Shown in pieces: positions 1,739-36,195 of a stretch of 64,000 nucleotides of DNA. Location: contig JAFCDQ010000003.1 in assembly GCA_017609645.1 (NCBI GenBank), positions 148,846 to 212,845 on the forward strand, given 5' to 3'. The notes under the pieces are model-generated. The model was not told the DNA's origin. It did no database searches and saw only the letters and a list, made by a program, of their open reading frames with translations. Source of the stretch: Candidatus Woesearchaeota archaeon. Its GTDB lineage: Archaea; Nanobdellota; Nanobdellia; Woesearchaeales; ARS49. The translations under genes and the position numbers were made by a program. Numbering within the stretch: the first letter of the stretch is position 1; every line of letters starts with the position of its first letter.

Positions 1739-2365
1739 TTAATTAGTCGCTATATTCCTAACTAATCTAACCTTTGCTACATTGCTTTTGCTTAAGAACT
1801 CTCCATCTTTTGTGTATATCTCAAAAAATGCTGTGTATTTATCTCTTGGATAATATCCAATGTATTCATCATATTTGTTTGCATACCCAAACACAACATA
1901 TCCTTCTATAAATGCAGTGGTGATTATTTGTTCGCATGTTGGAGGATCGCTTTCATATTGGTTTTGTGCGCACATTTTTATGACGAGATTTTCTACTGGA
2001 TCATATGGATATGGTCCGAATTTCCCTTCATATGTTCTTATGATATCGTCATAAAGTTGTATCTCTCCATACATCGTAGAGGGCGTGAATATTCCTTGTA
2101 CATAAAATTGAATATCATTTGGCATTAATGCTTTTTGTACTTCTGTTTGCATTGGCAGTTCATATACTCCTGGCAAAGTGCCTGCTTGTCCAACTGAGAC
2201 AATTTGTTGTGTGCCAAATAATCCTGGTATTGGCTCCCATGCTTCTATTATTTGCTGTCCTGTTCTTTTGCCTAGAAATGAGTCGCTTGTTGATGCTATA
2301 CCAAGTAAAAGAATTATGACAATTAAAGCTCCGGATGTTACACCAACTTTTTTTACTCTTTGCAT
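1739..2365 (-). CDS. Secreted or membrane-anchored hypothetical protein; last gene of the surface-protein locus
   Basis: 208 aa with an N-terminal hydrophobic segment (GALIVIILLLGIAS). It follows the giant-protein gene on the same strand. Confidence 0.5.
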   Translation of the reverse strand: MQRVKKVGVTSGALIVIILLLGIASTSDSFLGKRTGQQIIEAWEPIPGLFGTQQIVSVGQAGTLPGVYELPMQTEVQKALMPNDIQFYVQGIFTPSTMYGEIQLYDDIIRTYEGKFGPYPYDPVENLVIKMCAQNQYESDPPTCEQIITTAFIEGYVVFGYANKYDEYIGYYPRDKYTAFFEIYTKDGEFLSKSNVAKVRLVRNIATN

Positions 2366-2404: not shown

Positions 2405-5400
2405 TTAATAATTGAATATTTCATTTACTCTGTTGTATTTTTCATTTATCATTTCCAGCAGTAATTCTTCTGTGCACACATAATCTTTGTATGCTCTGCA
2501 TTCATCTATTTTTTCTTGGTATTTGTCAAATCTTGTCAAGCCTATATTACTCGCGACTTTAAGGAAGTTTTCTTCTAATGTTAACACTCCCCAAAGATCT
2601 CCATTGTCTGCTAGATAAATCCATAATTTGTATTCTTCTGGCAGAACATTTCTCATCAATGCAAGGTCTGACTCTTCTGTGTATAAAAGATCTTTTTTCA
2701 CTTGCTGTTCTCTTTCAATTATGCTTTTGCTGATTAAATGAGCAGGAATTTTTAGAGTTTCATTTACATATTGTTCCATACGGTATTTGCCAGTTTGTTC
2801 TGGAGTGATGCTATCTAGGGCAGCAATAATATTATTTAATTGTTGTAGTTGATATCCGTGATGAATATCTGATAATTTTGCTTTGTAAGCTTTTATTTTT
2901 CCTTTTAAGTATTGGAGATTATCGGCCATATTTTGTCCTGAAACATAATCTTTTGAATTTTTCAAGATATCCAAAATAAATACTTTTGCATCATCTGCGG
3001 TTTGAGTGTATCTTTTCATCTCAGAGTTTAATGCTTTTGGAGATGGTTTTACAGCAGGTTTTATTTCTCCTTTAAACTCCAATCTTATTAATACTACACT
3101 GGTTTTTAGATTTTCTTTGACTATTATTAGATTATCCAAACAGTTCTGCTGATAATTATTCATGCATTTCCTTAATTCCATGTCAAAGGCATTCATTTGT
3201 TTTTTCCATTCATTATTCAGTTTTAAATCATTTAATGTTTGCGGCAGTTCATAATAATTTTTTTGAAGTTCTCTTAAGAATTTGATTTCTGTTTTTTGAA
3301 TTTGATTTTTTGTTGCCTGTCCTGCATTTCGTTTGATTCTTAGTTCTTTTTCAGCGTCTATATTATTGAATAAGAAATTTAGAGTGTTTTTAAAGTAAGT
3401 TATTTTGCCTACATACAGCATTGCTCTTATTTCTATTTCTGCTATTTCATTTATTGTTTTTTGTATGTTTTGCTTAACACTTTCTTCACTTGATTTCTTC
3501 AATATGTTTTTCTTTAAATCATCTATTATTTGTTTTTTTGTTGCTAAATTTTTCATGAATTTGTTTATCTCTGTTAATTGTGATGTTGTTTTAACTGATT
3601 CCAATAGTTCTGTTATTTGTTTTTCTGCCCTCGCTAATTCTGTAAAATAAGTATTTATGTGGTCTCTTGCAGTATCTGCAGGAGTGTAATATTTTCCAGT
3701 TTGTATTGCAGGCAGGACTTCTTTTAATTGCCCTCTTGCAGACTTGCTTTTTGCAATTATTGTATCAATCGCTATTTCTTTTATTTTTGCTATTGCTTCT
3801 CCTTCGCTTGCTTTTGGAGGCAATGCCACTCCCGTTAATCTCTCTGCTTCTGTGAGGACTTTTTCTTTTTCTTTTTGTGCATCTTCAATTAAATCTATGA
3901 CTCCTTTCAAATAAGCTTTGATGTCAGCATCATTTTTCTTAACTTCATTAAATCTTTGCAGTTTTCTTGTTAATATATCAAGTATTTTTGCTAAATCATC
4001 TGCTTGGAGTTTTTCAGTTTCTTTTGCTAACGCATTATATTTATCTATTAATTCTAAGAGTTTTTCTTCTACTTGTGATTCTAATGGTTCTGCTTCTCTT
4101 TCTATGTAATTTGTTATGTCTACATAGATTTTTGCCATGTCTGTTTTTTGTAAAAATACATTGATATTGTCGCTTATTACTTTTTCATCATTAATATACC
4201 CGTCTAGCGGATCTAATGCTTGTCTTATTTGGAATAATAAGTCATTTGCTGTTGCTTCTTCAATAATTTCTTTTTCAGGAATCTCGCATACAACATAGAA
4301 TTCTTTTTTCATCTCTACTGGAGAGCCTATTACAGGGTCTATGCTTTGCATTGATGTTGGATTGCCGTATTTGTCTGCATCATATGCCTGGAATATGACT
4401 GTAAATCTTTGAGGTTGATATTTTGTTTTTGCATCTGCACAGATATCTCCTGCAATTGTTTGTATTATCTTGAATTCTTTTCTTTTTCCTTTTATCTTGC
4501 CTATTTTGTCTTTTGCAGGAAGGTTTATTACGACTTCTATGTTTTTTGCTTTATCAATAAATACTATTTTTGTTTTATAATCTCCTTTGTCAAGATTTAT
4601 TCTTTCTGTGTATTCAAAACCATATGCACTATTTTTTACTTTGTCTTCTAAATCTTTTGATTCATGAATTCTATAAACAAGTTCTCCGTTTTCTTCATCA
4701 ATTACTAAAAGATATGATATGCTTGCTGCATAAGGTTGTTTTTCTTCTCTAATTATTTTGAATTCTTCAAATAATTGCAGTTCTCCTGGACGAATAAAAC
4801 TCAAGCGAATGTCAGATTGTGATAATGTGTCAGACATTTTTGCTGTTTCTTTGTCTTTGTCCCATTCTAAAATTCTCATGCCGATGGTTTTCTCTCCCAT
4901 CCATTCTTTTGTTACAAATATATTTCCTATTCCCGCATCTAATGTGCTTACTGTATAATCTCCATTAGTGTTTAGTATTGTTTTTCCAGCAAATGTTTCA
5001 CTTGCAGGATCTTTTTGTGTAACTATTCTTCCTTTTGCATCTTTTATCTGCCATGCTAAGAATTTATTGTATACTGGTTTTGGAGGACTTGGATAATCCT
5101 GGCTTATTGCAAGTTCTGCTTCAAACTTATCTTTTATAGTGAATATTGTTATTTCTTTTTTGTTTTGTTTTATTGTATGAGGTGCTTTGATTGTTAAATC
5201 TCTAAACATTACTCCTCCTTCTTGTTCTCCAAATACACATCTAAAGCTCAAGGTAAAGAGGTCAAATGCGCAAAAGTTTGGAGGATGTGTTCCTGTCTGA
5301 CCTATTGAACAAGTTACTGAATCATCTCTGAATTGTCCGTTTGGATCTGTCCAGCTCCAGGATAATTCTGCCGTGTCATATCTAACCATGCTTTGGTCGC

Positions 5401-8400
5401 CTTGTAATGGTATGAATAATTCTTTGTTTAATATATCATATTTGCTTATTGTTCCTGCTATTTCTGGCGGAGTGACTTCTAATTCTTTTTCTCCTTGCCT
5501 GCAGTCGCATTCTCCTTTAAGGAAGCCGTCTGTTTCTTTGCATTTATATCCTTGGCTGCATTTTAATTTTAATCTTAAGTTAAGATCGCTTCCTGGCGCG
5601 ATCATTATTCCAAAATGATAAAGCCATTTTGCTGATCCTTTTACAGGATAACTTGATGGATCATATCCTATGAATCTTCTTGAGCAAGGGAATATTACTG
5701 CTGAGCTGTCTATTGGTACTTCTTCTAATGACATATCAAACAGAACGTCTGGATCTAGGCTCCACGTGCCTGTAAATGCAAATGAGCACATGCTGTGCAC
5801 TAACTTCCTGTCTACAAACATTGCTTTGTATAATCCTGTTCCGCCGTATCTTTCTTCTACATCTCTGCCTACATTACTCGCTGATGTTGTTAATGCTGTT
5901 AATACATTTTCTACGCCTCCTATTTCTACTCTTTTATTTGCTTTTGGCATGCTGTATTTTTCTGAGAAACATTTTACTACATTAAATATTAAATCACACA
6001 CATATGTCTCTAGTACTGCTTGGCATACTCCTTCGCTTCCTTCTCCTGTTGTTCTTACAACATCAAAGCAGTTTTTGGATGCAGTTAGTATGTTTTTCCA
6101 TAATTTCAAATTAGCTACCATGCCTGGCAGGCAGATGCATTGTCCTGAACGCAATAGTCCACTTGATGGTCTGACAATGTATTCTTTGTCTTCTGAACCT
6201 ATTTTTGTGATTATGCTTTCATATAATTCTGTGGCTCTTGCTTTTGTTATGCATGAAGCACCTTTGCCTGCTGCAGTACATAATGCTTTTTGGAATCCTT
6301 CAATATTTTTTATTTTTCCTGTTGCGTAATATTCTTCTATTATTTCTGGTGTGAAGAATGTGTCAGCCTCTGCTGCTTCTAGTTCTATTGCTTCTAGTTT
6401 TGCATTTAAGTAATGTCTTTTTCCTTCTGCAATTATTCCTGATTGCTCGCTTTTTTGGAAGTTAAGAACTTCTACTACATATCCTAGTTTTACTGTGTAA
6501 AGGCTTGTTGATTTTGTTAAGCTCATTAGCACTTTTTGTTCTTCTGTTAATGGTATGACAAACACATAGAGCATTTGTTCTGGGCTGAATTCTGATAATC
6601 CTAATTCTTTTATTTTATCGTCACTAAACTTCACAATCTTGTATGTTTCTGGTGTTGGCCCTCCTTTTGCTTCGCAGAATCCTGCAACAGAGTTCCATAA
6701 TTTGTTGCATTCTACTTTTTCTTTGCCTACTTCAAATTTGTTTTGTCCTACTCTTTCTGAACTTAGGCATGTGCTTTCTTTTATTTCGTCAAATGTGTCT
6801 AAAAATTCTAGTTTACTTAGTCCGCATGCGCTGCCCCAGGTGTCCATGTATTCATATCCACAGCATTCTGCAGTTGCTGGATGAATTCCTGAGCAGCTCA
6901 GTCCTGTTATTTTTTCTTTTTCTCCGTCATCTTGATGTTTTAGATAGTTTCCATATATTTTTTTTACTTCGTCATTGCTAATCATTAATTTTCCTTTTAC
7001 TCCTTTTTTGTTTTGTTTTATCCATGCCGCACAGTCACTGCCTTGGTATATTTTCCCGTCAATGGCGTATTTTGCTGTTTCTGCATTTTTTGGAATATTT
7101 TTTATCTCGCTTATTCTGTTTTGCTGTCTTTTGATGTATGTTTGTAATGTTGGGGCGTCTGGACAAGCTACTCTGTCACATACTTGTTGATAGATTGATT
7201 TTACTTGATTATAAGTTTCTACTGCATCTTGGCAGGATTTACAGTTTGTTTGTGTTTCTCCTGTGTAAATTTCGCACATTCCTGATTTTGCTATGTTTGG
7301 ATTAAATCCTTTTCCTGATAGGAAACTTGCTGCTGCATTTAATTCGCAGTTTAATGTTTTTTGAACTTGAAAGACATACATTAATACATTTCCTGCTAAG
7401 CAGCCTATTGTTGCTACTTTTCCGACTGTTTCTATTGGTTTTAGTATAAAGTCTATTCCTTTTATTATATCTCCAAAACGCCTTGATAAGAATTCTAATG
7501 CTCCTGATGGTATTATGTCAGCAGGGATTAGTTTGTCTATCATCATTTCTTGTTCTATGCATATTTTTTGTACTTTATTCTCGCTTATTTCTTCTTCTAC
7601 ACTTTCTCCTGAGTATGGATCTGTTACCCATCTTTTCTTAACTTCTTGGAATGGAATCTCTAACTCGAGCATAAATCTTCCGCAGCCAAATCCTGGAACA
7701 AGGCAGTTTCCTTCTCTATGATTGCTTAATTCCATTAACCTGTCTGAGGTTAGTGCTTCTGGATCGTCTGAAAGTAAGTCTAGTGGATTAAAATTAAATT
7801 GTATATATCCTTTTACTTTTTCATTTTCATATCCTCGAACAGGTGTTGCTATTGTGTTTATGTTGACCCATCCATTATCATATTGGTTTGCAACTGCTGG
7901 GCTGAGCATCATTGCATTTGCTTTTATTGCGTTTGATCTTAGTCTTATTTTGTTTACGCCTTTGTATTCTAGTTCAAATGCAAGTCCTATTTGCTGCATT
8001 CCTTCAAACATTAATCTTGGAGTTAGTATATCAGGTATTGGTGTTGAGATTCGTGATTCAAACCACGTGCCGTAACCGCATATTGCATATTCTACTATGC
8101 TTTCTGGTGTTTCTGTCATTAATCCTACTGCATCAACAGCCTGTAATTTGATTTTGTTTGCATAACCTCCTCCTGCTTGCAGTGTTGCTCTCATTTCACT
8201 TGAGGTCATGCCTGCTCCTGTTGTTTTTAGAACAATTTGTGCTGCAAATGTTCCATCATTTTCTGTTAGAACTGTTTTTTCTGCTTTGCCGTTCAAGAAT
8301 ACTGTCACGCTTGCTTTTTCATTTAATTTTCCTCTTACTATTACTGCTTTTTTGTATGAAGGGGTTAATTCTTCGAGATTTGTTTCAATGAATTGAGGAG

Positions 8401-9253
8401 GTCCTGAGTCATACATTATTTCTTTCTTTGTGATTGTTCTAAATCCTGCTTCATCTTTTGCAGTTATGATTACTTCATTTTTTCCTTCAAATAAATCTAT
8501 TGGGATTGTAAAGTTTCCTTCAACACTTTTGTTTTTTGTTCGTGATTCATCACTATCTTCTTTATTGATTTGTATTATCAGTGTTACTGGTTCATTCACA
8601 TATCCATTAAGTTCAATTATTTTTTGGGTCGTTACATCTTCTATTTTAATTTCTAATTGAGGAGGTTTTGTGTCAACTTTGACTGTGAATTCTTTTGTTA
8701 GTTCCTGTCCTCCTATATTTATTGCAGTTATTTTCAATTTGTTTGTATCTTTTGTTAATGCTATGTTGGTTATTGTGAATAATTCTTCTTTTGTCAGGAT
8801 GTTTTTCTTTTCTATGCCATTAACAAATACTCTTATTGTTGTCTCAGGAATTGTTTTTCCTTTTATCTCGATGCTTGTGCTTTTTGCTACTTCAGGCACA
8901 TCTAAATCTAGATAGAATTCTTTTACTGTGAATGTTCCTTCTCTCAATGCACAATCAGGGGTAAGCAATTCTGTGCAGCTTAGTATTTTATAGACGTATT
9001 CTCTTTGTTCTGTATTAAATGTAAATTCATGATGTGTTTTCTTGTCTTGGTATGCTTCGCCTAAAATTTCCTTAAAAGAGCCGTATCCATATTCAAATGT
9101 TGCATTTGTTGCGATGTCTGTGTTCCAGGATACTGTTGTTGTGGTTTCTGTGTGTGTGAAAACTACATTTGTGATAAAATCAGGTTGTGCTAATACTGAT
9201 ATTGCTAGTGCTATGATAATGAGGATCATGATGTTTTTTATTTTTATTTTCAT
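2405..9253 (-). CDS. Giant secreted surface protein (2282 aa): signal peptide, FN3-like N-terminal module, Cys-rich central region, about 900-aa K/E-rich coiled-coil C-terminus
   Basis: Single uninterrupted ORF. The N-terminus MKIKIKNIMILIIIALAISVLAQP is a signal peptide, and TVSWNTDIATNATFEYGYG is an FN3-like start. The C-terminal third is heptad-like and Lys/Glu-rich. Its start overlaps the stop of the upstream pilin-like gene by 4 nt. Confidence 0.8.
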   Translation of the reverse strand: MKIKIKNIMILIIIALAISVLAQPDFITNVVFTHTETTTTVSWNTDIATNATFEYGYGSFKEILGEAYQDKKTHHEFTFNTEQREYVYKILSCTELLTPDCALREGTFTVKEFYLDLDVPEVAKSTSIEIKGKTIPETTIRVFVNGIEKKNILTKEELFTITNIALTKDTNKLKITAINIGGQELTKEFTVKVDTKPPQLEIKIEDVTTQKIIELNGYVNEPVTLIIQINKEDSDESRTKNKSVEGNFTIPIDLFEGKNEVIITAKDEAGFRTITKKEIMYDSGPPQFIETNLEELTPSYKKAVIVRGKLNEKASVTVFLNGKAEKTVLTENDGTFAAQIVLKTTGAGMTSSEMRATLQAGGGYANKIKLQAVDAVGLMTETPESIVEYAICGYGTWFESRISTPIPDILTPRLMFEGMQQIGLAFELEYKGVNKIRLRSNAIKANAMMLSPAVANQYDNGWVNINTIATPVRGYENEKVKGYIQFNFNPLDLLSDDPEALTSDRLMELSNHREGNCLVPGFGCGRFMLELEIPFQEVKKRWVTDPYSGESVEEEISENKVQKICIEQEMMIDKLIPADIIPSGALEFLSRRFGDIIKGIDFILKPIETVGKVATIGCLAGNVLMYVFQVQKTLNCELNAAASFLSGKGFNPNIAKSGMCEIYTGETQTNCKSCQDAVETYNQVKSIYQQVCDRVACPDAPTLQTYIKRQQNRISEIKNIPKNAETAKYAIDGKIYQGSDCAAWIKQNKKGVKGKLMISNDEVKKIYGNYLKHQDDGEKEKITGLSCSGIHPATAECCGYEYMDTWGSACGLSKLEFLDTFDEIKESTCLSSERVGQNKFEVGKEKVECNKLWNSVAGFCEAKGGPTPETYKIVKFSDDKIKELGLSEFSPEQMLYVFVIPLTEEQKVLMSLTKSTSLYTVKLGYVVEVLNFQKSEQSGIIAEGKRHYLNAKLEAIELEAAEADTFFTPEIIEEYYATGKIKNIEGFQKALCTAAGKGASCITKARATELYESIITKIGSEDKEYIVRPSSGLLRSGQCICLPGMVANLKLWKNILTASKNCFDVVRTTGEGSEGVCQAVLETYVCDLIFNVVKCFSEKYSMPKANKRVEIGGVENVLTALTTSASNVGRDVEERYGGTGLYKAMFVDRKLVHSMCSFAFTGTWSLDPDVLFDMSLEEVPIDSSAVIFPCSRRFIGYDPSSYPVKGSAKWLYHFGIMIAPGSDLNLRLKLKCSQGYKCKETDGFLKGECDCRQGEKELEVTPPEIAGTISKYDILNKELFIPLQGDQSMVRYDTAELSWSWTDPNGQFRDDSVTCSIGQTGTHPPNFCAFDLFTLSFRCVFGEQEGGVMFRDLTIKAPHTIKQNKKEITIFTIKDKFEAELAISQDYPSPPKPVYNKFLAWQIKDAKGRIVTQKDPASETFAGKTILNTNGDYTVSTLDAGIGNIFVTKEWMGEKTIGMRILEWDKDKETAKMSDTLSQSDIRLSFIRPGELQLFEEFKIIREEKQPYAASISYLLVIDEENGELVYRIHESKDLEDKVKNSAYGFEYTERINLDKGDYKTKIVFIDKAKNIEVVINLPAKDKIGKIKGKRKEFKIIQTIAGDICADAKTKYQPQRFTVIFQAYDADKYGNPTSMQSIDPVIGSPVEMKKEFYVVCEIPEKEIIEEATANDLLFQIRQALDPLDGYINDEKVISDNINVFLQKTDMAKIYVDITNYIEREAEPLESQVEEKLLELIDKYNALAKETEKLQADDLAKILDILTRKLQRFNEVKKNDADIKAYLKGVIDLIEDAQKEKEKVLTEAERLTGVALPPKASEGEAIAKIKEIAIDTIIAKSKSARGQLKEVLPAIQTGKYYTPADTARDHINTYFTELARAEKQITELLESVKTTSQLTEINKFMKNLATKKQIIDDLKKNILKKSSEESVKQNIQKTINEIAEIEIRAMLYVGKITYFKNTLNFLFNNIDAEKELRIKRNAGQATKNQIQKTEIKFLRELQKNYYELPQTLNDLKLNNEWKKQMNAFDMELRKCMNNYQQNCLDNLIIVKENLKTSVVLIRLEFKGEIKPAVKPSPKALNSEMKRYTQTADDAKVFILDILKNSKDYVSGQNMADNLQYLKGKIKAYKAKLSDIHHGYQLQQLNNIIAALDSITPEQTGKYRMEQYVNETLKIPAHLISKSIIEREQQVKKDLLYTEESDLALMRNVLPEEYKLWIYLADNGDLWGVLTLEENFLKVASNIGLTRFDKYQEKIDECRAYKDYVCTEELLLEMINEKYNRVNEIFNY

Positions 9254-11241
9254 TTTATTATTGGCAGCAGTGCTGTTTGGTATTTTGTTGTAGCGTCATA
9301 ATATCCTTTATCTAAAAATGCGAGCAGGTTCTGCAGGTCTTGTTCTCTTGAAGGGTTTGGTCTGTATTCAACCAAATTTAATTGTATTTTATCTTTGCCT
9401 AATAAATCATGATAACTTACTCCATAATTTTCTTTTTGGTATCCTCCTATTATCATGTCTCCTGCTACTAGATACATTTCTAGTTCATATCGCGCATCAT
9501 CTAGTACAAAGTCCAGAGTTTCATCTTCTGGGAAGATTTTATATTGTTCATAATCTGTTCCTTTTAGTTTTAATGACAGCATAATTCTTTCTTTGTCTTT
9601 TAGTTTGAATCGGTTTTGGTCTGTCTGCCATTGTCTCATGTTTGATTGATATGGATGTATCACAAATTCTGGTTTTAATGCCTGTAGTTTTTTCAGGTAT
9701 ATATCCAGTGTGTCTTGTGTAAGCCATTGTGCTGAGTCAAGATATCCTTTTTTTGTTGCAAGTACTCTTGGATTGCCGCAGCCTTGAGGAACATTTGTTC
9801 TTAATTCAATATCCCCGTTGCTTTGTACTTGTGTCTCACCCATTTCGCAGTCTATGCTCATACATTCTAATGTTATGTTTACTTCTTCAAGAGGTATGCC
9901 AACTGGGCTGTATGGTTCAAAGCCTAGTACTTTGATTTTTATTTCTCTTTCCCCTTGTTCTTCACAAAATCCTGAGCCAATATACATTGGTTCAAATTGT
10001 CTCATGCCAAAGTTAACTCTTTCAGGCGCATTGTCACTTATTATTACTGGCGTTCCAAATTGAAATACAAATCCTTGATTGTCAAATGCTTTGTCGTCTT
10101 TTACTATGACTTTTAGAGGATATATTATATCATATGTGAAGTGCCATTGGTTCATGCAGAAAAATGGTATTAAGTTTTTTGATCCTTTTGCCACCTCACT
10201 TTTTAGCCATTTGCCGTCGTGAGGAAGAGCGCTCATTAATAATTGTGAAGGGTCATAAACAAATTTGACTTTCAAGTCTGTGCTTGAAAGTTTTGGATCA
10301 AATGTCATCTTGTTTATTTCATACACATCTGCAGGAATATCTCCTTCAATTTCTACTGAACTTATTTTTCCTTTGATCAAGTCTTCTGTGATGTCTTCTC
10401 CTTTACTTTTTAATTCGTCATATACTCTTTGCGCTGCTAGCGGCGCTGGTTGAGGAGTATTTTTGATTCTTATCATAGGTATTGTGTAGAATAATATTTT
10501 TTTCATTCTTTCTTGCACTGTTTCTAGGTTCCATTTCTTTTGTGTGCATCCTGCTTCCATTCCTCCTAATGGTATTTTGTCGTCTCCACTCATCATGTCT
10601 ATTGTAAGTTTTTCCAGCCATTTTTGTTTGTTTTCTTCTGCCAGGATTTGTACTGCTGTATCATACATTTCTCTGTATCTTGATTCTTGCAATGCAAAGT
10701 ATTCAGAATGCATGACTGTTCTTTGTTGTGTGTTTATGTTTAGCGGCCATTTTATTTCTGCCACTACTTCTTCTTCTGCATATGTCACTAAAACATCTGG
10801 TTCTTCTAATATTTGCACCATTTGGGATGGCGCTAATGCTTGAAAGTTAACACAGGTTTGTATTTCTTGTTTTATGTATCTAGCTAGTTGTGTTTGCATT
10901 AGTCCATAACTAGGTATTCTGTTTTCTGTTTCATAATACCAGAATGGAACTTTCACAACTCCTAATGAATCTGCATTGATGTAAGAATCTGGATTGCTTA
11001 ACACAAATGCAGGGATTTCTATGTATCCTCCTTGCAGTCCTTGTATTATTAGTCCTTGTTTTAGTGCATTTTTTGCACAGTCATTTACCATGTCAAATAC
11101 TGGTCTTACGTCACTGGGAACACTTGGTGCAGTTCTCCAGGGCTTAGCAGCTTCTGTCGTTACAAAGTATAGAACCATTCCTATTGTGATTATTAAGATT
11201 AAACCTAAGATTATGAATATTGTTAGTTGTCCTTTTCTCAT
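9250..11241 (-). CDS. Large (663 aa) protein with a class III (type IV prepilin-like) signal peptide; paralog of the 711-aa protein at 18052..20187
   Basis: N-terminus MRKGQ followed by about 22 hydrophobic residues (LTIFIILGLILIITIGMVLYFV). A Shine-Dalgarno-like AGGGGT lies 3 nt before the ATG. Shared motifs with the 711-aa paralog are QGGYI, PFWYY/PYWWY and CVNFQAL/CVNNFAGL. Confidence 0.7.
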   Translation of the reverse strand: MRKGQLTIFIILGLILIITIGMVLYFVTTEAAKPWRTAPSVPSDVRPVFDMVNDCAKNALKQGLIIQGLQGGYIEIPAFVLSNPDSYINADSLGVVKVPFWYYETENRIPSYGLMQTQLARYIKQEIQTCVNFQALAPSQMVQILEEPDVLVTYAEEEVVAEIKWPLNINTQQRTVMHSEYFALQESRYREMYDTAVQILAEENKQKWLEKLTIDMMSGDDKIPLGGMEAGCTQKKWNLETVQERMKKILFYTIPMIRIKNTPQPAPLAAQRVYDELKSKGEDITEDLIKGKISSVEIEGDIPADVYEINKMTFDPKLSSTDLKVKFVYDPSQLLMSALPHDGKWLKSEVAKGSKNLIPFFCMNQWHFTYDIIYPLKVIVKDDKAFDNQGFVFQFGTPVIISDNAPERVNFGMRQFEPMYIGSGFCEEQGEREIKIKVLGFEPYSPVGIPLEEVNITLECMSIDCEMGETQVQSNGDIELRTNVPQGCGNPRVLATKKGYLDSAQWLTQDTLDIYLKKLQALKPEFVIHPYQSNMRQWQTDQNRFKLKDKERIMLSLKLKGTDYEQYKIFPEDETLDFVLDDARYELEMYLVAGDMIIGGYQKENYGVSYHDLLGKDKIQLNLVEYRPNPSREQDLQNLLAFLDKGYYDATTKYQTALLPIIK

Positions 11242-11297
11242 ATTACCCCTTTTTTTACTTTTGCTGCCTTTTTTGAGCTTACTTTTATAGTCTTGCT

Positions 11298-11392
11298 AAC
11301 CGCGACAGGGGGTTGCCCCCTTCGGGGATGTCGCCACTCAAATAAACTTTGCAGTCAAGCGAATTGGCAGCAAAGTCTACCCCCTTGTTCCC
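11298..11392. other. GC-rich structured intergenic element (candidate small RNA, leader or attenuator) between the 297-aa membrane-protein gene and the 663-aa pilin-like gene
   Basis: The only strongly GC-rich island in the window. Outer stem GCGACA (11302-11307) pairs with TGTCGC (11329-11334) and encloses a GGGGG-UUG-CCCCC hairpin (11308-11320). That hairpin competes with a CCC-UUCG-GGG tetraloop hairpin (11318-11327). A second 7-bp stem ACTTTGC/GCAAAGT (11346-11352 / 11370-11376) has a 17-nt loop. I found no tRNA cloverleaf. Confidence 0.35.
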
Positions 11393-12286
11393 CTAAAGTT
11401 TAAATTTTTCAATAAATGTTTTCAAATAATTTCTCAGCCACACTACAAGAAGCGCTAACAATAATGCTTGTATGTAAAATGTTGTTGTTGGCGTTAAAGT
11501 TAATGATAATAATGAAAGTATTACTGCAATTAAAAAATAAATAAAGATAATGTAGCTTATTGGATTGAGGCATTTTGATATTAATGTCAGACTTTGTATT
11601 CCTTTTGCAAAGCTTTGTTTTATTTTGTTTGTTTTCAGCATATTGTAATGCAAAAATGTTGTCATATATATGTAAAATACAAGGAATATTGTAGGAATTA
11701 GTGATACTGCTATTTGTCCAGCGAAAGCATCTTCTTTCGGTGCAAAAATATAATATAATATTCCCCACATCAGCCACCATAATAAGTTTAATGCAAAAAA
11801 CTTAAGCAATTTTTTCTTGTTGAATTTTTGTTTAAGTAGTTTTAGCCAAACAAAATATTTCAATATTGAGTATATTATTAAAAGCAAAAGCAAAAATACT
11901 GCGAATATTAATATGATGTAAACGATTGTTTGCTGTGCTAATGCTAGATTTTGTTGTATTGCTTCAAATGTTTGTTCTGTCAATTGTGTTGAAGCGATTT
12001 TTTCAGCGACTTTAGAAACTAATTTTAGCGCCCCTTGTAATAAAAAGAAGAATATTACCAAATAGGCTATATCTAAAACAAATATTGTGAAGATTGTTTT
12101 GTTGAATTTAAATGATTTCAGGAATGTTTGGAACTTTTTCTTGTCTGTTTTTGTTGGAATAAGCAGGACTAATCCTGCTAGCGCAAGTATGATAAAAAGA
12201 TTTTGTTTAACAAATATTGTCAATCCTATTCCTGCTAAAATACTTATGATCCCTATTACTTTTTGTGTTATGTTTTTTATTTTCAT
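11393..12286 (-). CDS. Polytopic integral membrane protein, hypothetical (about 8 predicted TM segments)
   Basis: 297 aa, almost entirely hydrophobic helices. It lacks prepilin-peptidase and archaeosortase motifs. Its start overlaps the upstream gene's stop by 4 nt. Confidence 0.6.
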   Translation of the reverse strand: MKIKNITQKVIGIISILAGIGLTIFVKQNLFIILALAGLVLLIPTKTDKKKFQTFLKSFKFNKTIFTIFVLDIAYLVIFFFLLQGALKLVSKVAEKIASTQLTEQTFEAIQQNLALAQQTIVYIILIFAVFLLLLLIIYSILKYFVWLKLLKQKFNKKKLLKFFALNLLWWLMWGILYYIFAPKEDAFAGQIAVSLIPTIFLVFYIYMTTFLHYNMLKTNKIKQSFAKGIQSLTLISKCLNPISYIIFIYFLIAVILSLLSLTLTPTTTFYIQALLLALLVVWLRNYLKTFIEKFKL

Positions 12287-14811
12287 ATTAATGTACCATC
12301 TTCTGCATCTTCTGATTGTAAGTTATTTGCTGCCAGATTTCTTGAATCCATTGTGCTTGCCGGTCCTGCTCCTGCAAATGGCACACAATATTCACTTTTT
12401 GCACCTGGGAAATCTGCATCAGTCCATTGCATAGCTGCTGGAAGAAGTCCTCCTGTAATTGAACCAATTCCACCTAATATTGTTCTTGCCCATAAGTCTT
12501 CATAATCTTGAACAAATTCATCTATTTTTTCTTTAAACACTAAACAAATTTGATTATAATCTGTTGTGCTGTATTTGATAAAGTGTCTTGTTGCGCCTTG
12601 TCCTGGTTTGAGATATTTCCAGTCAGAGAACCATCTTGCTCGTCTTTCAGGGCCTCTGAATTCTACATTCACGTGCAAGTCTCTGTCTAATGGATTATTT
12701 ACTCTCATTTGTGCATTGTAAAGCCACATAGTGATTACTTCCATTTTCTTTATGTCGAGTTTTGGATCTGTGAAATCTACTTTTACACCGTCAATAAATG
12801 TCTGTTCTCCAAATAAATCTACTAATTCTTGTCTTGTTAATCCTTTGAATTCTATTGAGTCTGATCTCTCACCCACAAGTAAGGCAGCTCCCATTGGTGC
12901 TGCAGTGTCAGGCCCTTTTGTTAGCATGTAATTGCTTGGGCTTGAACTGATAAATCCTTCACATATATGTGATGTCCAGCATTCTTTTAATCCACCTATC
13001 ACACAGAATTTATCTTGAATCTCCTGCTTTCTCTTTGCAGCTTCTTGTAAATAATCAGAATCAAATATTAATGCGCTTAAGTATGCAAATCCCTTATATT
13101 GATTGAATGAATGTGTTAATACTCCTAGAAATCTCCACGTTCCCATTGCACTTATCTTTTTGCCTACAGAAACTGGCAAAGTTAAGTATATTGTTATCAT
13201 TTTTTGTTTGGCTTTTTCTAGCATTTTTTTCATTGCTGGAGTTAATCCTTTTTTTGCCAATAATGCATCATAAAGTTCATCAAATGTTAATGCTTTTCCT
13301 GTTGTTTTTGCTTTTGCTAATAAAGCATCTAATTCAGTATTCAATTTTTTTATAGACTCTCGTGATAATCCTTGCTCTTTTGCTGCATCTTCTAAGACTT
13401 TTTTCGCTTCCTCAAAAAGAGCAGTTGCAATTGCTAAATCTTCATCTGCTGTTGCTGAATCAAATCTTGCTATGTCTTCATTTTCCTCTGCTATTTCTAA
13501 CTTTACTTTATCTTGATCAAGCAATTTTTTTGCTTCTTCAATTGTATCAAGAGTTCGTTCTGCATCTGCTTTCATAACTTCTAATTTTGCTTTGTATTCA
13601 TTTTCCTTTGCTTGCTCTAGTTTTGTTTCTGCTTCATAAAAAGCTTGTTTTGCTTTTTGATATTCTTCTCCTGGTTTTGCTGTTGTTGTTGCTTCTTGTG
13701 CTTTGTCAAATTCAGTTAATGCCTTGGTATATGCAGTTACTGCAGTTTCATACGCTTTATCTGCTTCTATGCTTGCTAATGTATTTTGGTACAGTATTTG
13801 TGAATTTTGATATTTTGCTTCTGCATCTCTATATTCTTCTAGTACATAGTTATATACCTGCTCTGCTGATTCACTATATCGTTTTGCTTCATTTAGTTCT
13901 AACAGTTTTTTCCCTCTATCCATCTCTGCATTTTCTTTATCTTGTGTCGTTGCGTCTTCTATCACTTCCCATGCCAAAAGATCGTTGCTAACTTTTAGAT
14001 AGTCTTCGCCGATTTGTTCTACGGCTAAATCTATAAAATTTCCATCGTTATCAAGTGTATAAGACTTAAATGTGTCTTTGTCTTGCATTACATTAAAGAT
14101 TGTGTTCCATTTTCCTGCAATAAACACTTCTTCAGTACTTCCAATTTTGTTGCCTTGATAATATTGGTTTTTTATTTTTCTTTTTAATTGCCCTGTTTTT
14201 TTGTCAATTACTAACTCAACTTTTGAAACTTGATATCCTAAGTTTGCTTTTTTGTCTGCTTCTGATAATTCTTTATGCAGTTTACTTGCCTTGTCTAGAA
14301 CATATTCTTCTACTGTTCTTCTTAATTCACCATTAGCACTTAATTTGTTTTCAGTTCTTATTGTTGTTTTGTATTCTTTTAATCCTCTGCTCCATTCTTG
14401 TGTGCTTTTGCCCCAGTAATTTATGCTTCCATCTGCTTCAACTCTAAAAGAATCTGCTTTTTTGATATCTTCATATATATTTGAAGTTAGATATTTGTTT
14501 TGGACATATCCTTCAGCTTGTAAGTCTTTAGCACTTACAACGACATCTTTGATTTTGAGTTCTCCTTTTATTAAAGGAATAATTCTGTTATTCTTTGAAG
14601 AAACATAGTAGTCTGCACTACCTGGAGTTTGTTTCATTTTATCTGTCACTGTTTCTTTTGCAGGTTTAGGCGTGATTCCTATTTTATTATCTTCAATCAA
14701 CTTATTTACAGCTCCTTTTTCTGGAGCTTTAGTATCTGCTGCATAAGCTATAAAGCTACTTAAGAAAATCATGATTATCATTATTCCTATAAATCTTCTA
14801 GAATGGTTCAT
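12283..14811 (-). CDS. Large secreted protein (about 840 aa) with a central coiled-coil region of about 190 aa
   Basis: The track ORF extends to 14895. The in-frame Met at 14811 gives a signal peptide (MNHSRRFIGIMIIMIFLSSFIAYAA) and cuts the overlap with the upstream gene to 14 nt. The central segment is A/E/K-rich and heptad-like. Confidence 0.65.
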   Translation of the reverse strand: MNHSRRFIGIMIIMIFLSSFIAYAADTKAPEKGAVNKLIEDNKIGITPKPAKETVTDKMKQTPGSADYYVSSKNNRIIPLIKGELKIKDVVVSAKDLQAEGYVQNKYLTSNIYEDIKKADSFRVEADGSINYWGKSTQEWSRGLKEYKTTIRTENKLSANGELRRTVEEYVLDKASKLHKELSEADKKANLGYQVSKVELVIDKKTGQLKRKIKNQYYQGNKIGSTEEVFIAGKWNTIFNVMQDKDTFKSYTLDNDGNFIDLAVEQIGEDYLKVSNDLLAWEVIEDATTQDKENAEMDRGKKLLELNEAKRYSESAEQVYNYVLEEYRDAEAKYQNSQILYQNTLASIEADKAYETAVTAYTKALTEFDKAQEATTTAKPGEEYQKAKQAFYEAETKLEQAKENEYKAKLEVMKADAERTLDTIEEAKKLLDQDKVKLEIAEENEDIARFDSATADEDLAIATALFEEAKKVLEDAAKEQGLSRESIKKLNTELDALLAKAKTTGKALTFDELYDALLAKKGLTPAMKKMLEKAKQKMITIYLTLPVSVGKKISAMGTWRFLGVLTHSFNQYKGFAYLSALIFDSDYLQEAAKRKQEIQDKFCVIGGLKECWTSHICEGFISSSPSNYMLTKGPDTAAPMGAALLVGERSDSIEFKGLTRQELVDLFGEQTFIDGVKVDFTDPKLDIKKMEVITMWLYNAQMRVNNPLDRDLHVNVEFRGPERRARWFSDWKYLKPGQGATRHFIKYSTTDYNQICLVFKEKIDEFVQDYEDLWARTILGGIGSITGGLLPAAMQWTDADFPGAKSEYCVPFAGAGPASTMDSRNLAANNLQSEDAEDGTLI

Positions 14812-17800
14812 ATTCTGGTTCTCCTCCGTTTTCTCCAGACGCTGTTGTTTTATCATATTCTTCTGCCCATTCTTCCATTTCACCGCACCATTCATTTGTT
14901 ACCATTCCCATTTCATTTTGTCTGTTTGTCATTGCAGCAATACTTGCCCATGCTTCTCCTACTTCTGCAGCTACCCTATACAATGAGCATGCTGTATGAA
15001 TTTGTGCTGGTTTTGTTTCACAAGTCAAGTCACACCAGGTTCCAAAGAATGTTGTAACTATTGTCCATGGATTTGCTAGCATCTCACCTAGCATTTGACT
15101 GATTCCTTCAAAGAATTGTGAGAATGGTATTATGTCAAATAAGGGTCCGCCCCATACATATGCGCAGTTCATGTAATGATTTGTATCTTTGCAATAACTT
15201 ATTGGAACTCCTGTTTCTTTCCAGTCTTTTTCTAAGCAGGTTGCATATTTGCATTCTATTTGTGCTATTTTATTGATGTTTCTGATAATTCCTGGCAAAC
15301 AAAGACATGCCGTGCTTAAGTAAATATTATCTTTTATATTTGTATACATTCTCATGTTTCTTTCGCCTTCTCCGAGATTTCGCATGTTTCCTTGCATCAT
15401 TGCCCAGCCTGCTGTTAAGCTGCCACCTTGATCCATTATCCAGTCTTCAAATGCAGTGCACCATGGAGCTCCTCCTCCAACTAGATTTTCAATTCCCCAT
15501 TGGTCTTTTCCTCCGCTTGACTGACAATTTACTACAGCGCAGGCTTTGTCTAAGATTGTGTATAATGGAACTCCTAGTAATTTTTCTTCTTCAGGTATTA
15601 CTATTTTTTTGAATGAGGATTGTTTTCCTCCATATGCTCCGTCTATTTTTTCTTCTATTTCACATATTGGAGCTCTTGTGAGATAGATTGATTGGGATAT
15701 TGCAGGTCCAAAGACAGGAATGGCGCTTGTTGAGTCTTCCACGTTTCCTATTACTGCAACTAGTGCTGCTCCTGTTGATATTATGCTTGTTATGATTCCT
15801 TTCCATTCACATACTTCTTCTGCTATGTTAACTATTTCATTCATTGTTTCTAAAAGATCTGATTTAAGCACTCTTGCAGTATCCACAGCTTCTTTGATTG
15901 TTTTTTCTCTTCGTTCATAAATATCTCCAAGAGGCAAATCATAAAATTCTAAAAGAATGTCTACATCTTCTTCTTGAGGTGTTGTGTATATTGTTTGTTC
16001 TCTTTTTGAGTAGATTGTTAATGGACATGATAAGCTTAAATTATCTAGATAATAATCTCTTGCAGGAAGTTGTATCATAAAGTAGGGATTTGTGCTTCCT
16101 GGTGCTGTGTTTATTGTGCTTATATCGTCAATAAAGTTTGTTGTATTTCCAATACAATCATTTATTGATGTAGGTCCGATGATGCTTACTGTTTCTGCGC
16201 TTGAGCTTGTGCTTAAATCAACTTCACATACTACTCTTTGAGGTAGTTGTGATGTTGTTTTTCTGTCTATTGGCTGCGGCCTGCATGTTACATCACTTGT
16301 CCAGTATTTTCTTGCAGTGTCAACATCAAGTTCATATATTGTCATGTTGTATTCTGTTTCTGTTGTGTCATCAAATATGTCTGTGAATATGAAATTTATT
16401 GTTGCTTCTGCTGGTCCGCTTATGTCAACTACACTTTCAAACAAACATTCATCTAATCCTGTTATGCTGCTTAAGCTGCATTCAACAGCGTCTGAATCAC
16501 TTTCACCGCCTATTGCACTAAAGTCAGCAAAAGCATTTTCAAAGTTTTTGCTTTCTACAACAAATTGGACTGTGTCTCCTCTAACTGCTTCTCCTCCTAC
16601 ACCTTCTGGTCCTGGAATTACTATATAGTCTATTACTTTTGGTTTTAATGGTCCTTCGCTTTGATAAAATATTTCAAATTCTTGTCCAGAGTCTATTTTG
16701 TTTCCTAAATCATCTTGCGTGTCTGAGGATAATTCAAAATCATATATTCCTGAATTTGTTGTTAAGAAATTTGGATGTATGTTCCATTTGCAGTCCCATT
16801 TGTCAGCTGCAGTATTCTCGCACAAATCTGCTTGTAATTTTTTATCTGCAGATCTTCCTGTTAGATCATAAATGTTAAGATATGCTTTTCCTAGGTTCAT
16901 TCCTACTCCTGGATCACCGTCAGTATCTTTTTCTGAGAATATAATTGTGAAATAAGAATTATAAGCTGCTATTGGGTTTCCGTCTCCATCTACTGGCCCT
17001 TTTCCAATCTGAACAACAACAGGTGATTTATCATCTGCTTCTATATCAAAATCAAGTGTTCCTTGGCCTTGATTTCCTATGTTGTCTGTTGCTCTTACAA
17101 GTATTGTTCCAGAACTTTCTTCATCAACTTCCAGACCAGTCCAGTAATAAAAATTAGGAATTTGTTTATTTGAATAAGGAACTAATTGCACATTGTCATT
17201 AAATGGAGTTAGTTTTGCTTTTACTGTTGCATCTTCTATTCCGCTTAAATCAGTGATTTCTGCTCTGACACTTACTTGCTCGCTTCTTCCTGGCAGGACA
17301 TGTGTTATTTGTGCTCCTTCTGCATTTGTTAATGCTACTTCTATTGTTGGAGCTCCTTCATCTATGTAAAAATCATCACAAGCAGTATCTTCTCCGTCTA
17401 AGAAATCTCTAACAGTTGCGCATGCTCTTAGTTCATTTTCATCTCCATCATATATATAATCAAATCCTTCTGTTATTTCGCATTCTCCGGCCTCGCCTGT
17501 TATTGTTCCTACTTCTTCCATGTTAACATAGAATATGATTTCTTTTATTCCTGAGCATTCTGCTGATGCAGTTGTTGTGCCGTAATCTTTTGCCGTTACA
17601 GCAAAATTTACAGGGCCTGTTGTCATTTCTGGTTCTACATTAAAGCTTATTATTTCTGGGTCTGTATCATCTATGATTATTGTTTCTTCTAATGTTTCTC
17701 TTAAGATTGTATCTTGGTCATGAAGTGTTACTTTAAAGTCTATTTTTTCTTGTCCAATAAGATCTAATTCATCAGTATACGTGCAGGTGTAATAATCATC

Positions 17801-22198: not shown

Positions 22199-22675
22199 TT
22201 AATTAGGGAATATATCCCTATTTCTTGTTGGAATACAGACTCTATCTGCAGAGTCATACCAATCTAAAGTCTGATGCCCAATATCTGCTAGATAACAAAG
22301 CACATCTGAGTTTATTCTTCCTTGATATAATGGAAGATTATATTGTCTTAGCGTTTGTCCTCTTTGTGCTTTATCTTCTACAACATAACATTTTATTTGA
22401 TCTTGCGGAATTATTTGTTTATCAGACCTTCTATTCCCCCATATAGTTCTACATTGAGGAATATGTTCTACTCCGCCTCCTATAATAATGTAATGAGCTT
22501 GATCATATGACATTCCGCCTGTTTCTCCGACATAGGGTTTGTTATATGTCATGCCCGCATACCATGATTCTCCTGTTGTACTTGCTCTTGTAAATAGCAA
22601 GACTAATCCTATAATGGCTATGATTGTTATAACACCTAAAATAACTAATCCTAATCCTACTTGACCTTTTTTCAT
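22199..22675 (-). CDS. Small (158 aa) pilin-like protein with a class III signal peptide
   Basis: MKKGQVGLGLVILGVITIIAIIGLVLLF. A perfect Shine-Dalgarno GGAGGT (22682-22687 on +) lies 6 nt upstream of the ATG. Confidence 0.65.
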   Translation of the reverse strand: MKKGQVGLGLVILGVITIIAIIGLVLLFTRASTTGESWYAGMTYNKPYVGETGGMSYDQAHYIIIGGGVEHIPQCRTIWGNRRSDKQIIPQDQIKCYVVEDKAQRGQTLRQYNLPLYQGRINSDVLCYLADIGHQTLDWYDSADRVCIPTRNRDIFPN

Positions 22676-36100: not shown

Positions 36101-36195
36101 GTGTAAAAAAAGTAAATAAAGGTATAAATAAGTATTCGTAAAAATTTACTAAGAAAAGTAGAAAAACGAACAAATCTTTGCTAATTTTAGTAAAA

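Follow-up and report, generated by a model that had tools for sequence, protein, structure and literature searches.

The stretch of DNA analysed here (64,000 nucleotides, hereafter the window) encodes g2282, a Sec-exported cell-surface protein of ~250 kDa from a Woesearchaeota archaeon (DPANN; GTDB Nanoarchaeota). A conserved surface cluster of seven genes, two of which encode pilin-like proteins, has g2282 as its largest product. This conserved operon context is the informative part that an earlier sequence-only reading of the region had overlooked. Judging function from this context, we give roughly an even chance to g2282 being the distal subunit in an apparatus for cell contact that is anchored through pilins. 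The gene and the parts of its product are located as follows.

2405..9253, minus strand: g2282, giant secreted protein and subject of the finding, 2282 aa plus stop (ORF list and translation)
9188..9253, minus strand: Sec-type signal peptide, aa 1-22, MKIKIKNIMILIIIALAISVLA followed by QP (read from sequence)
8882..9184, minus strand: FN3 / purple-acid-phosphatase-N-like β-sandwich head, aa 24-124 (Pfam Pur_ac_phosph_N)
8048..8881, minus strand: Ig-like domain array, aa 125-402
5705..8047, minus strand: family-defining Cys-rich α/β core, aa 403-1183 (AF2, conserved Cys)
4292..5704, minus strand: post-core β-sandwich modules, aa 1184-1654 (AF2 core and tail models, motifs)
2408..4276, minus strand: variable C-terminal module, aa 1660-2282 (AF2, heptad tests, similarity search)

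g2282 is a genuine gene for an exported protein

The ORF list and translation show a single uninterrupted frame with an ATG start codon, and g2282 is a genuine ORF rather than an artefact. The possibility that it arose as an assembly chimera was ruled out, because full-length, collinear homologs with the same neighbours occur in dozens of independent assemblies. No relatives were found on IMG/VR contigs, so g2282 is not viral or mobile. The signal peptide noticed in the first reading is present, with the n-, h- and c-regions of a Sec signal and a cleavage site inferred from sequence; its pattern L..L.I.LP...A is retained in the family consensus. It is the only segment of the whole protein with a Kyte-Doolittle hydropathy ≥1.6, and the same scan revealed no C-terminal membrane anchor. 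The giant bears a Sec signal and not a pilin signal. N-x-S/T sequons are depleted in g2282 (4 observed vs 14.2 expected) and across 60 family members (584 vs 815). The extracellular binding proteins of the window are likewise depleted, and the depletion is therefore compatible with an extracellular location of g2282.

Domain organization and the Cys-rich core

As drawn from Pfam and AF2, g2282 consists, from N- to C-terminus, of the signal peptide, an FN3-like head, Ig-like spacers, an α/β core of ~780 aa, β-sandwich modules and a lineage-variable C-terminal module. The head matches Pur_ac_phosph_N only below the 30-bit cut-off (E=1.4e-3, 19.6 bits), but the equivalent region of the homologs P0011 (2.7e-10) and P0064 (1.2e-7) is above threshold, and fn3 is matched there as well. 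The FN3 or purple-acid-phosphatase-like module proposed earlier is thus upheld by its relatives. Less than 40% of the protein consists of Ig-like modules, and its conserved part is a core of approximately 1140 aa.

The Cys-rich extracellular core was also correctly recognized at first reading. Residues 392-1339 hold 36 of the 44 Cys of g2282, and the Cys content of this region is 3.8%, compared to 1.15% for 13 further proteins encoded in the window. Among 45 homologs (28-64% identity), 33 of these 36 Cys are invariant or at least 90% conserved, and the ~33 conserved residues probably form disulfides. The AF2 model of the core, built with 45 sequences, has a mean pLDDT of 76.5 and a pTM of 0.63. 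It contains a long β-hairpin (aa ~523-572, 22 residues per strand) followed by helices of 64 (aa ~583-646) and 31 residues, and the motif QC[IV]CLPG lies at aa ~1038-1044. The core has no match in Pfam, NCBIfam, PHROG or PDB sequences, and fold searches of PDB and BFVD returned matches restricted to the flanking Ig-like domains. The sole structural neighbours of g2282 are Ig/FN3 modules of the kind present in the giant adhesins SiiE, MpIBP and Bap; no known adhesive fold was seen in the central core.

The β-sandwich modules downstream of the core are conserved to about aa 1420 and moderately so to about aa 1654. Their strands lie at 904-1134 in the AF2 core model and at 36-234 in the AF2 tail model (pLDDT 60-80), and they keep the motifs KLKCS.GY.C...DGF..G.CDC and YDAD..G.PT.

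A conserved cluster with two pilin-like proteins

At 50% identity the core family falls into at least 651 clusters, and 348 of these reach E≤1e-30. Its members span roughly 800 to 3100 aa (most 1700-2500) and include 12 close full-length homologs of g2282. Almost all of the 57 genomic loci with a family member are labelled Woesearchaeota or Nanoarchaeia. The array runs g711, g1085, g870, g297, g663, g2282, g208, and the neighbours of the giant gene are listed in that order (slash, predicted processing site).

18052..20187, minus strand: g711, second of two modular type-IV-pilin-like proteins, MRKG/QVTLFIIIGIILLITIA..., at the head of the conserved array (N-terminus, position)
14798..18055, minus strand: g1085, secreted, Ig-like array and Cys-rich C-terminal region with 29 Cys (conserved position)
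12283..14895, minus strand: g870, secreted, Ala/Glu/Lys-rich helical middle and conserved C-terminal domain (translation, conserved position)
11393..12286, minus strand: g297, polytopic membrane protein, about 6-7 hydrophobic segments (hydropathy, conserved array position)
9250..11241, minus strand: g663, obligate upstream neighbour of g2282, a large 'modular' type-IV-pilin-like protein, MRKG/QLTIFIILGLILIITIG... (N-terminus of class-III type, shared among loci)
1739..2365, minus strand: g208, small N-terminally anchored or secreted protein, downstream cluster member (blastp)

Wherever upstream sequence is available (53 related loci, without exception), the pilin-like g663 (663 aa) immediately precedes the giant gene; in the window its stop codon and the start codon of g2282 overlap (ATGA). 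About 28 distinct loci carry the array g1085-g870-g297-g663-giant, most of them with g711 too, and about 10 loci have only part of the array. The cluster is widely conserved and single-copy. Downstream, blastp places g208 on the same strand in 26 related loci, and the 39-nt spacer ahead of it contains AAGGAGG before its ATG.

g711 is a paralog of g663 (hhalign against the g663 family, E=2.9e-57). Both families keep [KR]G/Q[ILV]T[ILV]FII[IL]G followed by a hydrophobic helix; neither protein has a match in Pfam or PDB, and a solute-binding domain was found in neither. By profile comparison g1085 is a partial paralog of g2282: hhalign aligns the two over the array of Ig-like domains (E=2.7e-11) and at the CLCLPG motif (E=2.5e-5). 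In g870, hydropathy places a signal-like segment at aa 35-53, and translation probably starts at M29 (nt 14811), where the consensus of its family begins.

When the surroundings of four loci were annotated with Pfam, no type-IV-pilus ATPase or platform gene linked to the cluster was seen, and a crude test for the Walker A motif G.TGSGKTT was negative over 1.14 Mb of loci plus the window. The lack of a linked ATPase or platform gene counts against a pilin-anchored apparatus, as do the Sec signal of the giant and the missing adhesive fold in its core. A filament is not required, since signals of the pilin type are also carried by some non-filament proteins, among them the binding proteins of the Sulfolobus bindosome.

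A putative pilin-anchored contact apparatus

These genes suggest the following arrangement. Exported and oxidatively folded, g2282 would dock through its conserved core onto the globular domain of g663, the partner proposed because the two genes are translationally coupled and always adjacent. Prepilin peptidase would process g663 and g711 at KG/Q, and the complex would be anchored by their N-terminal helices, either in the membrane or in a short stem resembling a type IV filament, with g1085, g870 and g297 completing it. The Ig and β-sandwich modules would act as spacers. The fast-evolving C-terminal module, in this organism about 620 aa of segmented K/E-rich helices, would form the distal end and contact the partner cell or surface.

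From adjacency and coupling we infer the g663-g2282 interaction; assembly into a complex, anchoring by the pilin-like proteins, disulfide bonding and a part in adhesion or cell contact are likewise proposals. A hypervariable C-terminal module beside a conserved core counts in favour of a contact apparatus. The pilin-like partner genes and DPANN biology, in which the proteins of attachment structures are still unknown (PMC11420986), make participation in cell-cell contact plausible. Large adhesin-like genes are, moreover, frequent in the type-IV-filament loci of archaea (bioRxiv 10.64898/2026.04.22.720090).

Alternatively, the cluster could build an S-layer-like envelope lattice in which g2282 is a structural coat subunit and not a contact device. 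g2282 is large, secreted and rich in Ig-like domains, as is typical of archaeal S-layer proteins; the cluster is single-copy and widely conserved, with membrane-anchored partners encoded beside the giant, and we know of no S-layer gene for Woesearchaeota. However, archaeal S-layer proteins are usually heavily N-glycosylated, and the sequons are strongly depleted both in g2282 and in the family. A hypervariable C-terminal module would be unusual in a lattice subunit, seven different large components plus two pilin-like proteins exceed known S-layer needs, and the incomplete arrays also speak against a coat. We regard this alternative as unlikely.

The C-terminal module

The sequence-only reading had described a K/E-rich, heptad-like tail of about 900 aa and proposed that it forms a single extracellular coiled-coil rod ~100 nm long, a stalk or tether like tetrabrachion. 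The composition stands for part of this region only. The 867 aa that follow the core open with about 240 aa of β-sandwich (aa ~1421-1654, AF2 pLDDT 60-80), and only the final ~620 aa (aa ~1660-2274) are predicted all-helical, rich in Lys and Glu (22%) and poor in Pro and Gly (5%). The AF2 tail model has for this part low-confidence helices (mean pLDDT 48.6, mostly below 50) and no single long one: about 20 helices of 4-57 residues with breaks between them. The run was of a monomer, in which an oligomeric coiled coil cannot show, and an elongated rod of several segments would be compatible with it.

Heptad signals are patchy. Only two stretches, aa 1860-1917 and 2103-2135, have a crude heptad score above the 99th percentile of shuffles, and both score lower than tropomyosin. 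By Fourier analysis, a 3.5-residue periodicity is significant only at aa ~1730-1834 (z=3.4-5.4) and one of about 3.67 residues at aa 2010-2079. Significant heptad periodicity spans just about 100-150 aa and is lacking over most of the region. Internal repeats were sought in the tail and none was found.

Similarity of the tail is detectable to P0002 only (22% identity, E=2e-7), a relative with 64% identity in the core. In a set of 142 family representatives, anything from 66 to 1413 aa follows the core; helix-like composition was seen in 2 of 68 long tails, many others being Cys-rich, and in most members the tail is absent, short or Cys-rich. The tail is the least conserved part of g2282 and hence not its defining feature. 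Given the breaks, the patchy periodicity and the missing C-terminal anchor, which sets g2282 apart from tetrabrachion, a continuous ~100-nm stalk is improbable.

A device that penetrates or bridges the host membrane, the core hairpin, the 64-residue helix and hydrophobic segments inserting to open a conduit, is similarly doubtful. The modelled hairpin and helices would suit it, as would weakly hydrophobic conserved segments (g2282 aa 602-631 and 1075-1097; g1085 aa 754-772), and the proteins of the cytoplasmic bridges that DPANN archaea form are not yet known (PMC11420986). However, these segments lie below the TM threshold, PDB and BFVD yielded no fold match to a pore-forming or fusion protein, and the dense disulfide-type Cys conservation points to a rigid rather than a refolding domain.

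The extreme variability in C-terminal length and composition against conserved N-terminal and core regions might also recall an effector or polymorphic toxin, in which a conserved scaffold delivers an exchangeable toxic module, but this is very improbable: searches of g2282, 12 homologs and the four longest-tailed members turned up no toxin, peptidase or nuclease domain, there is no recognisable immunity-gene pattern (the downstream g208 is secreted or anchored), and the tails are helical or Cys-rich, unlike enzymes.

Comparison with known systems

Tetrabrachion, the S-layer stalk of Staphylothermus marinus, has a long uninterrupted coiled coil and a C-terminal membrane anchor. g2282 is likewise a giant protein of an archaeal cell surface and helical in its C-terminal part, but has neither of these features, and no sequence or fold match was found between the two. 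The SPEARE proteins of Nanohaloarchaeota also belong to the giant surface proteins of DPANN archaea and have been proposed to act in host interaction; g2282 lacks their serine-protease, adhesion and restriction-endonuclease domains, and no sequence relation to them was detected. With the giant Ig-repeat adhesins SiiE, MpIBP and Bap, g2282 shares Ig/FN3 modules as structural neighbours. Unlike them it is archaeal, Sec-exported and predominantly not Ig-like, shows no RTX or T1SS signals, and has a Cys-rich α/β core of about 780 aa that those adhesins lack.

Large Ig-rich adhesin-like proteins have been described at archaeal TFF loci (preprint, bioRxiv 10.64898/2026.04.22.720090). As with pilus-associated adhesins (bacterial PilY1/PilC with minor pilins; the modular pilins PilB/PilC of Streptococcus sanguinis), a very large secreted non-pilin adjoins prepilin-type proteins, and g663 and g711 (711 aa) bear big globular domains as modular pilins do. 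The cluster differs from pilus adhesin systems in having no linked ATPase, platform or peptidase genes, and g663 and g711 differ from known pilins in matching no Pfam or PDB entry. The β-propeller and vWA domain of PilY1 were not detected in g2282, whose core fold is unmatched. Finally, the substrate-binding proteins of the Sulfolobus bindosome carry class III signal peptides on large non-filament proteins. g663 and g711 differ in having no solute-binding domain and in being tied to a cluster of giant Cys-rich proteins, but they may similarly use the pilin-type N-terminus as an anchor or assembly handle.

A secreted giant protein with a conserved cysteine-rich core

The giant protein g2282 (2282 aa) is exported by Sec. 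It combines Ig-like spacers and a conserved Cys-rich core with a C-terminal module that is hypervariable. What gives it value is a conserved gene cluster and an unmatched core, not in the 100-nm stalk proposed by the sequence-only reading. The single reading frame described there (2405-9253, minus strand) runs uninterrupted through 2282 codons from an ATG start, and collinear homologs rule out an assembly chimera. The window (G+C ~31%) is archaeal, with ribosomal protein S6e (21224-21781) and housekeeping genes of archaeal type.

The signal peptide noticed in the sequence is a textbook Sec signal, MKIKIKNIMILIIIALAISVLA/QP (the slash marks the site), with an A-x-A-type end (VLA/QP). The combination of a pilin-type [KR][GA]/ site and a directly adjoining hydrophobic helix of ~20 aa is absent from the g2282 N-terminus. 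This signal is the sole strongly hydrophobic segment of the protein (Kyte-Doolittle hydropathy ≥1.6), and g2282 therefore lacks a C-terminal anchor. At the head, where an FN3-like module had been suspected, the Pfam match to Pur_ac_phosph_N (aa 24-124) is sub-threshold (E=1.4e-3). The FN3-like call holds nonetheless, because the equivalent region of the homologs passes the thresholds of both Pur_ac_phosph_N and fn3. The Ig-like Pfam families Big_13 and Glucodextran_B match aa 207-279.

The Cys-rich region, also part of the sequence-only reading, is well founded: 36 of the 44 cysteines of g2282 lie within aa 392-1339 (3.8% Cys, versus 1.15% in 13 other window proteins), and 33 of these 36 are strictly conserved, or retained in at least 90%, across 45 sequences of 28-64% identity. 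They are probably of disulfide type and would stabilise the core. A multihaem cytochrome is ruled out, as g2282 contains no haem-binding CxxCH motif; CxxC occurs just once (aa 671).

A usable AF2 model of the core was obtained from the alignment of 45 sequences (mean pLDDT 76.5, pTM 0.63).

Modules of g2282, and predicted elements of the AF2 core model in order
aa ~24-402 and ~1184-1654: Ig/FN3-like modules
aa 403-1183 and 1660-2282: not Ig-like
Core model, first: Ig-like sandwiches
Core model, second, aa ~523-572: β-hairpin with 22-residue strands
Core model, third, aa ~583-646 and ~666-696: helices of 64 and 31 residues
Core model, fourth, to about aa 1180: mixed α/β Cys-rich region
Core model, fifth, to about aa 1414: more β-sandwiches

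The fold search used the entire 1140-aa core model as query, so that Ig matches may mask weaker matches of the central region. PDB sequence and profile searches with g2282, the core alignment and the pilin-like alignment returned nothing real, and Pfam, NCBIfam and PHROGs gave only Ig/FN3-type matches for g2282 and its neighbours. The core, ~780 aa in length, seems to represent an undescribed fold of extracellular type.

Size and distribution of the family

The first search retrieved 12 full-length relatives (1700-2450 aa), among which one bears the label Candidatus Woesearchaeota. Conservation in their alignment is concentrated in aa ~281-1420, where every invariant Cys is found. Against 1.84 billion cluster representatives, the core profile matched 651 clusters at E≤1e-3, of which 348 reached E≤1e-30; the family thus comprises at least 651 clusters at 50% identity. 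Members range from ~800 to ~3100 aa, mostly 1700-2500, and a profile search of a second protein database added two named partial Woesearchaeota proteins. The loci carrying the giant gene are titled almost exclusively Woesearchaeota or Nanoarchaeia, with one Aenigmatarchaeota. A viral origin is ruled out, no relatives being present on IMG/VR viral contigs. Neither the family nor the cluster is described in Pfam, NCBIfam, the PDB or the searched literature, an absence that is not proof.

Many cluster-bearing contigs (L007, L008, L012, L013, L015 and others) are titled 'uncultured Methanosarcinales archaeon' (binchicken/co-assembly MAGs) and one (L031) 'Candidatus Binatia bacterium'. Such names read as placeholders or products of mis-binning, not as true taxonomy.

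The giant gene and its pilin-like partners

The giant gene is locked to a modular pilin-like gene, g663, within a conserved surface cluster of several genes, which are ordered on the minus strand as g711, g1085, g870, g297, g663, g2282 and g208. The g711/g1085, g870/g297 and g663/g2282 junctions are 4-nt overlaps (ATGA read), and the motif AAGGAGG precedes g208. Hydropathy indicates signal peptides for g870 and g1085 and ~6-7 membrane segments for g297. The Ig array of g1085 matches the giant (probability 97%, E=2.7e-11), and both share a 37-column motif around [S]..C[ILV]CLPG (E=2.5e-5). By hhalign comparisons g870 was rejected as a paralog of the giant; a strong coiled coil in g870 was likewise rejected.

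The g663 and g711 proteins are paralogs (hhalign E=2.9e-57). Both start with MRKG/Q[LV]T[IL]F.., which leads into a hydrophobic helix, a feature conserved across orthologs. The N-termini, MRKG/QLTIFIILGLILIITIG in g663 and MRKG/QVTLFIIIGIILLITIA in g711, combine the [KR]G/Q motif with this helix and are, as far as sequence can tell, of the type-IV-pilin (class III signal) type. A strict regular expression found the N-terminal motif in 36 of 56 g663-family and 24 of 32 g711-family matches, two lists that overlap because the paralogs cross-hit.

Related loci were collected by exact-protein look-up and by scanning one genome per GTDB species (57 loci), with an HMM for each family. Wherever upstream sequence was available, g663 lay directly upstream of the giant gene (53/53 loci). 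The run g1085-g870-g297-g663-giant was present in ~28 distinct loci, most with g711 too, and g663 and the giant gene stood alone in ~10. Relatives of g208 follow the giant gene in 26 related loci. No prepilin-peptidase, type-IV-filament ATPase or platform gene was found within 10 kb in four annotated loci, and a crude search detected no secretion-ATPase Walker A in 63 loci (1.14 Mb) or in the window. The pilin machinery may be encoded elsewhere.

In the arrangement that we favour, the core would dock on g663, the pilin-type helices of g663 and g711 would hold the complex in place, either in the membrane or within a short filament, and the variable C-terminal end would contact a partner cell or surface. 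We give this arrangement about an even chance.

Additional pilin-like and surface genes were seen in the window and in related loci. One weak match (L043) was the only relative of g158 in the fetched loci; on sequence grounds g158 could be a conventional pilin. The gene g304 is probably a lineage-specific addition, since it is not conserved beside the array in the other loci examined. In three loci where g1085 and g870 do not adjoin the giant gene, L016 (3596-4723), L021 (4672-5589) and L041 (5216-6223), a shorter, divergent pilin-family relative (E=1e-18 to 1e-25) is encoded a few kb upstream of it, each time on the other strand. This hints at a variant cluster layout.

Other genes in the window
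20208-21122, minus: g304, upstream of g711 at a distance of 20 nt; a single TM segment (aa 79-97) between a cytoplasmic N-domain and an extracellular part with weak Big_9 match
21224-21781, minus: S6e, with a repetitive Lys/Glu/Pro-rich C-terminal extension of ~65 aa (…KKEEPKKAEKPAEKPKE…)
22199-22675, minus: g158, 158 aa, pilin-type N-terminus MKKG/QVGLGLVILGVITIIAIIGLVLLF; 2 kb upstream of the cluster, flanked by the genes for ThrRS and S6e
24692-26302, minus: 536-aa protein, weak caspase (Peptidase_C14) match, E=2.5e-3
27644-29950, minus: 768-aa fusion of a Ser/Thr protein kinase with many TPR repeats
35039-49002: six paralogous Peripla_BP_6 (branched-chain-amino-acid-type) binding proteins beside probable ABC transporter genes
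55005-56708, minus: apparent SAICAR synthetase and AIR carboxylase fusion (PurC-PurE, 567 aa) in a purine-biosynthesis gene group

The kinase-TPR and Peptidase_C14-like genes lie just upstream of the cluster region. The Peripla_BP_6 group is an expansion of solute-binding proteins, and the PurC-PurE fusion within its group is unusual for a DPANN genome, which is expected to be reduced.

Sequon depletion

N-x-S/T sequons were counted in window 2405-20187 and 35039-49002 and in 60 family proteins. Four were observed in g2282 versus 14.2±3.4 expected, 584 in the 60 family members versus 815±26, and one in the six Peripla_BP_6 binding proteins versus ~11.8; the window's cytoplasmic proteins had about the expected number. 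These counts suggest that secreted proteins of this lineage are under selection to avoid N-glycosylation sites. As the extracellular binding proteins of the window are depleted likewise, the depletion in g2282 favours an extracellular location.

The same counts bear on the possibility that the giant forms an S-layer-like coat. Sequon depletion speaks somewhat against a glycosylated S-layer subunit, and we consider a coat unlikely. Even as a coat component, the protein would have what appears to be an undescribed core fold, present in at least 651 clusters. A device that penetrates membranes and bridges cells seems to us very unlikely.

The C-terminal module

The sequence-only reading described a K/E-rich, heptad-like tail of about 900 aa. 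The helical, K/E-rich part stands, but the region is composite, its first part is a β-sandwich and the heptads are patchy. AF2 modelling of aa 1421-2282 with five homologs was of low confidence (mean pLDDT 48.6, pTM 0.28); it predicted a β-sandwich at aa ~1456-1654 (pLDDT 60-80) and, at low confidence, ~20 helices of 4-57 residues with breaks between them at aa ~1660-2274. The helical tail contains 22% K+E and 5% P+G, and no internal repeats were found in it. Just two stretches, aa 1860-1917 and 2103-2135, rose above the 99th shuffle percentile on a home-made heptad score, and both remained below tropomyosin. In the Fourier analysis a period of 3.5 residues reached significance at aa ~1730-1834 alone (z=3.4-5.4), and one of ~3.67 residues was seen at aa 2010-2079. 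A single continuous coiled coil of ~100 nm is thus largely unsupported by the models, with helices of at most 57 aa and heptad phase in short patches only, and a coiled-coil stalk has little to recommend it as an explanation of the protein. An elongated jointed rod stays compatible with the monomer AF2 model and the home-made score.

After aa ~1660 the tail is unalignable among the 12 full-length relatives. Only one retrieved protein (P0002) has a tail resembling that of the window (22% identity, E=2e-7; 64% identity in the core), and a helix-like composition is found in just 2 of 68 long tails, many of which contain Cys, up to 36. On this comparison the K/E-rich helical tail is particular to this organism and its near relatives, placed on a hypervariable C-terminal slot. 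Post-core length varies from 66 to 1413 aa (median 438) in 142 family representatives.

The tails of three relatives (P0003, P0004 and P0010) carry, after window aa ~1660, a small Cys-knot-like insert, for example CPTETYECKDFCISDKDFSDSYSCPDNKKCC. Distant members also show the pattern C-x6-C-x3-C-x~12-C-x5-7-CC, a recurrence suggestive of a mini-domain that is shuffled.

A polymorphic toxin, finally, is scarcely credible: no toxin domain was found in g2282 itself, among 12 homologs or among four members with long tails, and the downstream g208 is conserved whatever the tail type.

A candidate attachment device

An attached life on other cells is assumed for DPANN archaea. Cryo-ET has revealed elaborate DPANN attachment organelles and bridges, whose proteins the authors call unknown (PMC11420986), and families of unknown function that are specific to DPANN are reported to be, for the most part, membrane-bound or extracellular (PMC8204110). 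The cluster, unannotated and conserved across Woesearchaeota, joins pilin-like anchors to a giant protein. Because it combines these anchors with a conserved, putatively disulfide-type core and a rapidly diverging end, it is a testable candidate for a DPANN attachment device. The pilin-anchored arrangement can be taken further: the seven-gene array, with its two modular pilins, three large secreted proteins that are Cys-rich or helical, one polytopic membrane protein and one small secreted protein, might encode a host-attachment or intercellular-bridge apparatus of Woesearchaeales, with g2282 as its distal, host-specific part and the hypervariable C-terminal module setting partner specificity. 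We hold this fuller version to be unlikely.

Comparison with known systems

The sequence-only reading had suggested a comparison with tetrabrachion-like stalks. These have several hundred residues of uninterrupted coiled coil, in constant heptad or undecad phase, and a C-terminal TM anchor, whereas g2282 shows neither, its AF2 helices being interrupted by ~20 breaks. In giant Ig-repeat (BIg/RTX-type) adhesins, tandem Ig domains fill most of the length, unlike in g2282, where aa 403-1183 and 1660-2282 are non-Ig. Such adhesins also have RTX repeats or a C-terminal T1SS signal; Pfam finds none in g2282, which is archaeal and carries a Sec signal. The C-terminal β-propeller and/or vWA domain of PilY1-type tip adhesins is absent from g2282, as are, by Pfam and NCBIfam, the serine protease, adhesion and restriction-endonuclease domains of SPEARE proteins. 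Although it fits no sequence or fold definition of PilY1, modular-pilin or TFF adhesin systems, the g2282 system resembles pilus-associated adhesins: PilY1 with minor pilins, modular pilins and archaeal TFF adhesin-like genes.
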